Shown here piece by piece: positions 3,893-3,979 of a DNA stretch of 64,000 nt (its first letter is position 1; every line of letters starts with the position of its first letter). The stretch comes from Pseudomonadota bacterium. Its GTDB lineage: Bacteria > Pseudomonadota > Gammaproteobacteria > RBG-16-57-12. The notes beneath the pieces were generated by a model, which worked only from the letters and a program-made list of their open reading frames with translations, was not told the DNA's origin and made no database searches. The position numbers and the translations under genes are program-made. The DNA lies in NCBI GenBank assembly GCA_040752855.1, contig JBFMHP010000017.1:81960-145959 (forward strand), read 5' to 3'.

Positions 3893-3979
3893 TCAGTACA
3901 CCATCCACATTTTGGTCACGATTAAGCTGAGCATCGCAATCAACGCCAGTATCACCATATCAATCAGGTAGTTCGTCAT
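3893..3979 (-). CDS. 28-aa hydrophobic single-TM micropeptide (MTNYLIDMVILALIAMLSLIVTKMWMVY)
   Basis: ATG preceded by AAAAGGAGTTGTAT (AAGGAG Shine-Dalgarno, 7 nt spacer). It lies downstream of a hairpin terminator at 4061-4083. It is embedded in an 87-aa ORF-track entry whose upstream part is Arg-rich junk. Confidence 0.5.
   Translation of the reverse strand: MTNYLIDMVILALIAMLSLIVTKMWMVY

Follow-up and report, generated by a model that had tools for sequence, protein, structure and literature searches.

A putative lineage-restricted gene for a 28-residue single-helix membrane protein in an uncultured gammaproteobacterium

The small membrane proteins KdpF (Kdp ATPase), AcrZ (AcrB), MgtS and MgtR (MgtA and MgtC) and CydX (cytochrome bd) act by associating with a larger membrane protein. 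Their genes adjoin that of the partner or are co-regulated with it, as in kdpF-kdpA and cydX-cydAB. Mini-proteins of the Pf3 coat type are inserted into the membrane by YidC or by the signal recognition particle (SRP). Among the small single-helix membrane proteins of E. coli are YkgR and YoaK. A further one, the inner-membrane protein YohP, comprises 27 amino acids and is inserted in an SRP-dependent manner (PMC7549839). Here we describe a short open reading frame (sORF) for a hydrophobic peptide of 28 amino acids in a stretch of 64,000 nucleotides, called the window from now on, of the gammaproteobacterial metagenome-assembled genome (MAG) GCA_040752855.1 (contig JBFMHP010000017.1, positions 81,960 to 145,959). 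Judged from its sequence, the sORF is probably a real coding gene, because a ribosome binding site, a start codon and a hydrophobic sequence are under protein-level selection in the sole related genome found. The product would be a new, lineage-restricted small membrane protein which has remained unannotated. For the statement as a whole, namely a real lineage-restricted gene for a single-pass small membrane protein with an accessory or regulatory rather than a toxic role, we see an even chance.

The sORF shows the sequence features of small single-helix inner-membrane proteins of up to 50 amino acids: an open reading frame (ORF) with a Shine-Dalgarno (SD) sequence, one helix and conservation in a coding pattern in one relative. 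With proteins of the YohP type it shares the size, the single transmembrane helix, aromatic residues at both ends, the strong SD sequence and the fact that annotation pipelines missed it. Like other finds made by SD sequence plus conservation, it was recognised only through its SD sequence, its start codon and an ORF kept in a relative. In contrast to the YohP-type proteins it has no sequence similarity to any of them and is known from two MAGs of uncultured, gammaproteobacterial-type organisms. The two elements are located in the window as follows.

3991..3986, minus strand: Shine-Dalgarno sequence AAGGAG, read from the sequence and kept in the relative
3979..3893, minus strand: sORF for the 28-residue peptide MTNYLIDMVILALIAMLSLIVTKMWMVY, by translation; stop codon TGA at 3895..3893; transmembrane helix predicted at about residues 4-22

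The reading frame runs ATG ACG AAC TAC ... GTG TAC TGA on the minus strand and is separated from the SD sequence by the 6-nucleotide (nt) spacer TTGTAT in front of the ATG at 3979..3977. It forms the 3' part of an ORF of 87 codons (4156..3893, minus strand) that starts with TTG. Since this longer frame overlaps the stop codon and the terminator of the upstream gene for a 449-amino-acid (449-aa) protein, it is regarded as spurious. A preliminary description of the locus, made from the sequence alone, had claimed a hydrophobic micropeptide of 28 residues with a strong SD sequence inside a longer spurious ORF, a single predicted transmembrane helix and a well spaced AAGGAG before the ATG. Translation, the SD sequence and conservation in the relative agree with the first of these statements, a hydropathy of 2.45 over 19 residues (residues 4-22) with the second, and the 6-nt spacer, which is the same in the relative, with the third.

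The distinctiveness of the sORF was assessed in a survey of all short ORFs on both strands of the window, which yielded 2314 combinations of ORF and start codon. In 79 of these, 21 of them intergenic, the SD sequence matched over 5 nt or more. The sORF obtained the top codon score among the SD-bearing short ORFs and was the sole case among the 2314 that had such a match together with a mean Kyte-Doolittle hydropathy of 1.5 or more. Its peak value of 2.45 is to be compared with random stop-free ORFs of 28 codons, none of which reached 2.4 in 20000 trials. When codon usage was modelled on 33 long genes, we obtained a log-likelihood of +13.3 bits for the sORF frame, and values below zero for all of the other five frames at this place. 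The window has a G+C content of 61%, and the third codon positions of its real genes have 75-88%.

The relative is locus L090 (MAG GCA_964557295.1, contig CAZKZP010000020.1), which was reached in a protein search via the TrxC homologue P0122 with 88% identity. It is collinear with the window over its first ~14 kb, and the flanking genes are 76-85% identical in DNA sequence. The shared gene set comprises a CHASE2 cyclase, a FecR/TPR protein, small genes, a homologue of a 754-aa protein, the end of the 449-aa gene, tRNA-Ser, trxC and the next gene. At the syntenic position 8681-8800 it carries an ORF of 39 amino acids which starts with MTKYLVECAVLALLAMFSLIVVKM and reads MTKYLVECAVLALLAMFSLIVVKMVHAAPSASALGGMLY in full. 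This ORF was predicted independently by the gene caller of the protein collection. The Logan assembly L096, which is also independent, is 100% identical to L090 across 1054 shared nt and shows the same sequence from position 8286 on. The allele of L090 is also carried by SRR6261449. The start region of the relative reads AAGGAGT-N5-ATG, so that AAGGAGT, the spacing of 6 nt from AAGGAG and the ATG are the same as in the window. The remaining DNA from the 449-aa gene to the tRNA promoter gave no BLASTN alignment of the two genomes (E <= 1e-5). The long in-frame upstream extension of the window ORF is absent from the relative, which supports the short form of 28 codons. The preliminary description had proposed a tblastn search for a conserved sORF at the same locus of related genomes; this relative keeps the ATG, the SD sequence and the hydrophobic ORF.

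In the tblastn search of all fetched loci the window peptide matched the relative with E = 1e-6 (15/24 residues identical). The second-best match in all fetched DNA was an ordinary hydrophobic membrane segment with E = 0.055. The 24 aligned codons were used for substitution tests. These bear on the possibility that the sORF has no function, because it arose by chance or is a remnant in decay, such as a first helix or signal peptide left over from a longer gene that was lost; the similarity would then be due to descent or to non-coding constraint. The mismatches at codon positions 1/2/3 amounted to 8/3/13 (chi-square P = 0.044); second positions were identical at 21/24 sites, third positions only at 11/24. 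According to the Nei-Gojobori method the proportion of synonymous differences (pS) was saturated at 0.70, while that of nonsynonymous differences (pN) was 0.23 (Fisher P = 0.0017). The resulting dN/dS of ~0.13 compares with 0.125 for trxC. When 24 substitutions were placed at random in a simulation, an identity of at least 15/24 arose in fewer than one in a thousand trials (0.09%, P = 9e-4), and the observed BLOSUM62 score was reached in 0/100000 trials. The replacements between the two peptides are conservative (I/V, D/E, I/L, L/F, V/A), and the hydropathy peak lies at residues 4-22 in both orthologues, with best 19-residue values of 2.45 in the window and 2.49 in the relative. A neutral remnant would not give such a pattern. 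Together with the exact preservation of SD sequence and start codon within DNA that BLASTN otherwise left unaligned, this makes a non-functional sORF rather unlikely. The peptide evolves faster than its surroundings, since it is 62% identical between the two genomes and the neighbouring proteins are 84-88% identical.

Several observations weigh against a small membrane protein gene, and part of them would suit a non-functional sequence. Only one relative with the sORF is at hand, so that two sequences are compared, and both genomes are MAGs. The C-termini differ, with 28 amino acids in the window and 39 in the relative; thus, part of the protein is unconstrained. By their sequences the two ORFs may share their end (ATG GTG TAC TGA and ATG CTG TAT TGA), which would imply an in-frame indel of 33 nt. 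In the relative the segment ...VVKMVHA/APSAS... is slightly signal-peptide-like with an AXA site. The codon usage is equivocal: synonymous codon choice is intermediate, differing both from the background (P = 0.047) and from a gene-like model (P = 0.024), and the rare codons ATA and TTA occur. In neither genome did a consensus scan reveal a sigma-70-like promoter just upstream of the sORF. The peptide was absent from all protein and family databases searched, including 1.84 billion representative proteins (phmmer, 30-aa query, 0 matches), and tblastn against plasmids and phages gave 0 matches as well. The adjacent genes differ between window and relative, so that no partner can be named. Finally, Lys3 of the relative weakens the assignment of a topology.

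The other searches for homologues gave a similar picture. Models of Pfam and NCBIfam (E up to 10), PADLOC and PHROGs produced nothing significant with the peptide, and Rfam detected only the tRNA over the sORF region. Neither the exact peptide nor its longer forms were present among 15 billion predicted proteins, and a word-indexed protein search with the extended ORF of 67 amino acids returned nothing. When viral and metagenome contigs were scanned for peptide 8-mers with a tandem-duplicated query, no homologue was confirmed among the matches listed (at least 600 metagenome stretches), and these stretches are probably generic hydrophobic matches. A degenerate pattern of 24 codons which fixed 11 conserved residues had 0 matches in metagenome contigs. 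Called-protein searches and exact-pattern scans are insensitive to so short a peptide; the protein searches missed even the orthologue of the relative, which is present in the collection. The length cut-off of Prodigal is 90 nt. The negative database results are weak, because ORFs of 28 codons are seldom predicted by gene callers and libraries of this size are too large for a match of 24 residues to become significant. Genomic context was followed through TrxC. A scan of the GTDB species representatives yielded 80 TrxC loci, the best of them 75% identical, which showed no synteny and no sORF homologue; in the 22 of the TrxC loci that were scanned for tRNAs no tRNA-Ser was found beside trxC. 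In TrxC relatives at 81-82% identity (L091-L094) synteny was lost and the sORF was missing.

For the product of a real sORF gene the following mechanism is proposed. The peptide would be translated from the conserved AAGGAG-N6-ATG on an mRNA that arises when transcription of the upstream operon reads through, or that starts at a promoter which was not recognised, and it would insert in the inner membrane as one helix. Residue 7 (Asp/Glu) would then be placed near one membrane face and Lys23 with the aromatic tail at the other, which is probably the cytoplasmic one according to the positive-inside rule. Mini-proteins of the Pf3 coat type offer a parallel, as the peptide likewise combines a short N-terminal tail containing Asp/Glu7, one helix and a lysine (Lys23) behind the helix. 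The charge distribution, which in the relative is weakened by Lys3, suggests an N-out/C-in orientation and an insertion free of the Sec translocon. The inserted peptide would bind or modulate a larger membrane protein and have no activity of its own, in analogy to the class of KdpF, AcrZ, MgtS, MgtR, CydX and YohP.

The peptide is comparable in length and hydrophobicity to KdpF, AcrZ, MgtS, MgtR and CydX, and by analogy with them it most likely acts as a tiny helix bound to a larger membrane protein. The preliminary description had also likened it to KdpF, MgtS, AcrZ and the type I toxins. The likeness is one of size and hydrophobicity and does not amount to membership in any of these families, as no family model matched. 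No model of AcrZ, MgtS, MgtR or CydX in Pfam or NCBIfam recognised the peptide at E values up to 10, nor did the KdpF model, and unlike kdpF the sORF is followed by a hairpin and tRNA-Ser instead of kdpA. The context differs from that of KdpF and CydX, since the sORF is surrounded by a two-gene module in decay, a tRNA and trxC, to which the relative alone adds an RTX-repeat gene, and no partner is conserved among these neighbours.

The window peptide has a high content of methionine (5/28 residues). Its sulphur residues are regularly spaced, with Met at position 8 (Cys in the relative) and the conserved Met16 and Met24. This spacing could be incidental to the hydrophobic composition, or it could be a soft-metal-binding ladder. 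Accordingly, two variants of a new family with an activity of its own were considered. In one of them the ladder of position 8, Met16 and Met24 would serve soft-metal (Cu+/Ag+) handling or a channel oligomer; in the other the peptide would be a lineage-specific membrane partner or toxin-like effector of the widely transferred module of the 754-aa and 449-aa genes. The position of the gene and the residue pattern are what speaks for these variants, and we consider them very improbable.

Genes as short as the sORF fall under the length cut-off of common gene callers. Flagging by SD sequence and hydropathy, followed by a check of synteny, can recover a small membrane protein in an uncultured lineage. 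With the sORF the small membrane proteome, of which little has been charted, gains one family. The find is an ordinary one, as small membrane proteins are common, and it opens no long-standing question.

The alternatives that remain depend on the surroundings of the sORF. On the minus strand of the window the order is the 754-aa gene, the 449-aa gene, a terminator-like hairpin, the SD sequence with the sORF, hairpins, tRNA-Ser(UGA), a terminator and trxC.

8007..5743, minus strand: 754-aa gene
5466..4117, minus strand: 449-aa gene (449 aa from the first ATG; 443 aa in the annotation of the source MAG)
4084..4060, minus strand: terminator-like hairpin AGGTCCAgggaTGGACCT with TTTTTG behind the 449-aa gene (terminator scan and fold)
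~3875..3833, minus strand: stable hairpin in the 3' untranslated region of the sORF, ~17 nt past the stop, with no U tract (folds)
3839..3790, minus strand: weak alternative hairpin CCGCCAG (3839..3833) / CTGGCGG (3803..3797) with a loop of ~29 nt, then T7 (from the sequence)
3763..3734, minus strand: promoter-like site TTGGCA-18-TATGAT (promoter scan)
3594..3506, minus strand: tRNA-Ser(UGA) (tRNA scan, Rfam)
3367..2924, minus strand: trxC (Pfam, NCBIfam)

The stem-loop behind the 449-aa gene comprises 4084..4067 and is followed by TTTTT in the terminator scan, in agreement with the preliminary description, which had placed the sORF behind the terminator of a 443-aa gene. A spacer of ~75 nt separates it from the SD sequence and the sORF. 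This stem-loop forms the upstream boundary of the sORF unit, though perhaps a leaky one. The promoter-like site TTGGCA-18-(TG)TATGAT in front of tRNA-Ser is identical in the window (3734-3763) and in the relative (9352-9381) and thus marks the downstream limit of the unit. Between the sORF and the tRNA region the window contains a structured spacer of 300 nt. In the relative a gene for a secreted protein of 153 amino acids with RTX calcium-binding repeats (Pfam HemolysinCabind, E = 4.5e-36) is found at 8826-9287. It begins 26 nt past the sORF stop and ahead of the tRNA promoter, where the window has a spacer (3595-3892) instead.

A stand-alone unit of this kind, situated between a terminator and another gene, would also be expected for a type I toxin, which would damage or depolarise the inner membrane and be silenced by an antisense RNA. 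The peptide has the size and hydrophobicity of such toxins (Ibs, ShoB, TisB, ZorO, DinQ, Hok, Ldr), and like them it is a short, intergenic orphan that is restricted to its lineage and evolves fast (62% identity versus 84-88% for the neighbours). The resemblance noted in the preliminary description points in the same direction. In contrast to the known systems, no antisense RNA promoter or terminator, repeats, conserved untranslated regions or family match were found. Consensus scans, which are weak evidence in this respect, revealed no promoter-like site on the opposite strand in window 3300-4300 or in 8300-9700 of the relative, and the earlier remark that no antitoxin RNA is obvious therefore applies to both genomes. 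Rfam gave no match over the region, a second copy of the sORF was present neither in the window nor in the relative, and no toxin family (Hok, Ldr, Ibs, TisB, ShoB and others) matched in Pfam, NCBIfam or PADLOC at permissive E values. Moreover, the 5' and 3' flanks, where the sites of an antitoxin RNA are expected, are not conserved between the two genomes, and in the relative the secreted-protein gene after 26 nt resembles the arrangement of an ordinary operon. Consequently, a toxin is distinctly unlikely.

The genes upstream of the sORF raise the question whether it is the last gene of their operon (FecR/TPR, 119-aa, 754-aa and 449-aa genes), for example a membrane anchor or regulator of the module. 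The sORF lies on the same strand and directly downstream of this module in both genomes, and a promoter of its own was not recognised. In the relative the hairpins that precede the sORF, behind the remnant of the 449-aa gene, carry no U tract, and the core of the hairpin is degenerate. This, together with the missing promoter, makes read-through from the upstream operon plausible and even likely for the relative. In the window a canonical terminator separates the 449-aa gene from the sORF. The 449-aa protein has more than 2000 homologues, which occur beside a partner of 700-750 amino acids in either order and in unrelated contexts. Nine of the fetched loci (L081-L089) contain a gene of the 449-aa family, among them L081 with the same order of four genes as the window, and tblastn detected no homologue of the sORF in any of the nine; the only homologue in the fetched loci is that of L090.

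The condition of the module in the relative points the same way. About 1150 bp of its 449-aa gene are deleted, so that the last 84 codons remain, with 85% DNA identity (8258-8605 compared with window 4111-5520), and its 754-aa homologue (5772-8032) is split by a frameshift. This points either to decay of the module in the relative or to a misassembly of the MAG upstream of 8286. The sORF itself is intact and constrained. Since it is absent from L081-L089 and intact in L090 despite the decay, the sORF is not a component of the module, and this candidate role was rejected; as the last gene of the upstream operon in a wider sense it is quite improbable.

The hairpins downstream of the sORF allow one more explanation, in which the peptide is a leader or upstream ORF that controls the downstream region through the hairpins 3875..3833 and 3839..3797 with T7, or is coupled to the RTX-repeat gene of the relative. 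The two hairpins are mutually exclusive because they share CCGCCAG, and the second one is followed by T7. In the relative the next gene starts 26 nt past the stop. On the other side, the hairpins have no counterpart in the relative (this holds for the stable hairpin 3875..3833 in particular, of which none was seen), and the downstream gene of the window is a tRNA with its own conserved promoter. UCN serine codons, through which tRNA-Ser(UGA) could be sensed, are absent from the sORF, and what is under selection is a membrane helix at the level of its amino acids, for which a simple leader has no need. A leader function is therefore exceedingly improbable, and an attenuator of tRNA-Ser was rejected on account of the missing hairpin counterpart, the conserved tRNA promoter and the lack of UCN codons. 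A CsrA-like arrangement with the SD sequence in the loop of a conserved hairpin (two compensatory changes) was rejected as well, since folding predicts this hairpin for the window (-10.1 kcal/mol) and not for the relative.

As the end of a transcript from the sORF gene, the weak hairpin with T7 is possible but unconvincing. The preliminary description had reported a weak hairpin with a T8 run at 3790-3840. A weak hairpin with a large loop is indeed present, but the run at 3796..3790 is T7 and not T8. The element (hairpin 3839..3797 plus T7) was not reported by the terminator scan and lies outside the minimum-free-energy folds.

The region in front of tRNA-Ser(UGA) showed some further features. 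The promoter-like site lies 140 nt upstream of the tRNA in the window and 220 nt upstream in the relative, which is an unusually long leader for a tRNA. In the relative a 29-nt copy of the start of the tRNA (93% identical) is located at 9431-9459, between the promoter and the intact tRNA at 9601-9689.

A hairpin GGTCCA-(a/g)gga-TGGACC occurs directly past the end of the 449-aa family coding sequence in the window (4067-4084), in L081 (8626-8641) and in L090 (8633-8648). A U tract follows it in the window alone, and the three genomes are very different in G+C content. The hairpin may be part of the mobile module rather than a plain terminator.

Upstream of the module, the window and L090 carry a gene for a CHASE2 sensor/cyclase. 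Behind it lies a gene, also present in L081, whose product of ~1130 amino acids has a FecR domain and TPR repeats. This stretch spans 9576-15514 in the window, 446-3829 in L081 and 1-4240 in L090. The protein of ~1130 amino acids in the window ends with ...VEWRF, which resembles the terminus of an outer-membrane beta-barrel. As these genes precede the 119-aa, 754-aa and 449-aa genes, the arrangement suggests a larger conserved envelope-associated cluster of CHASE2, FecR/TPR and the 119-aa, 754-aa and 449-aa genes.
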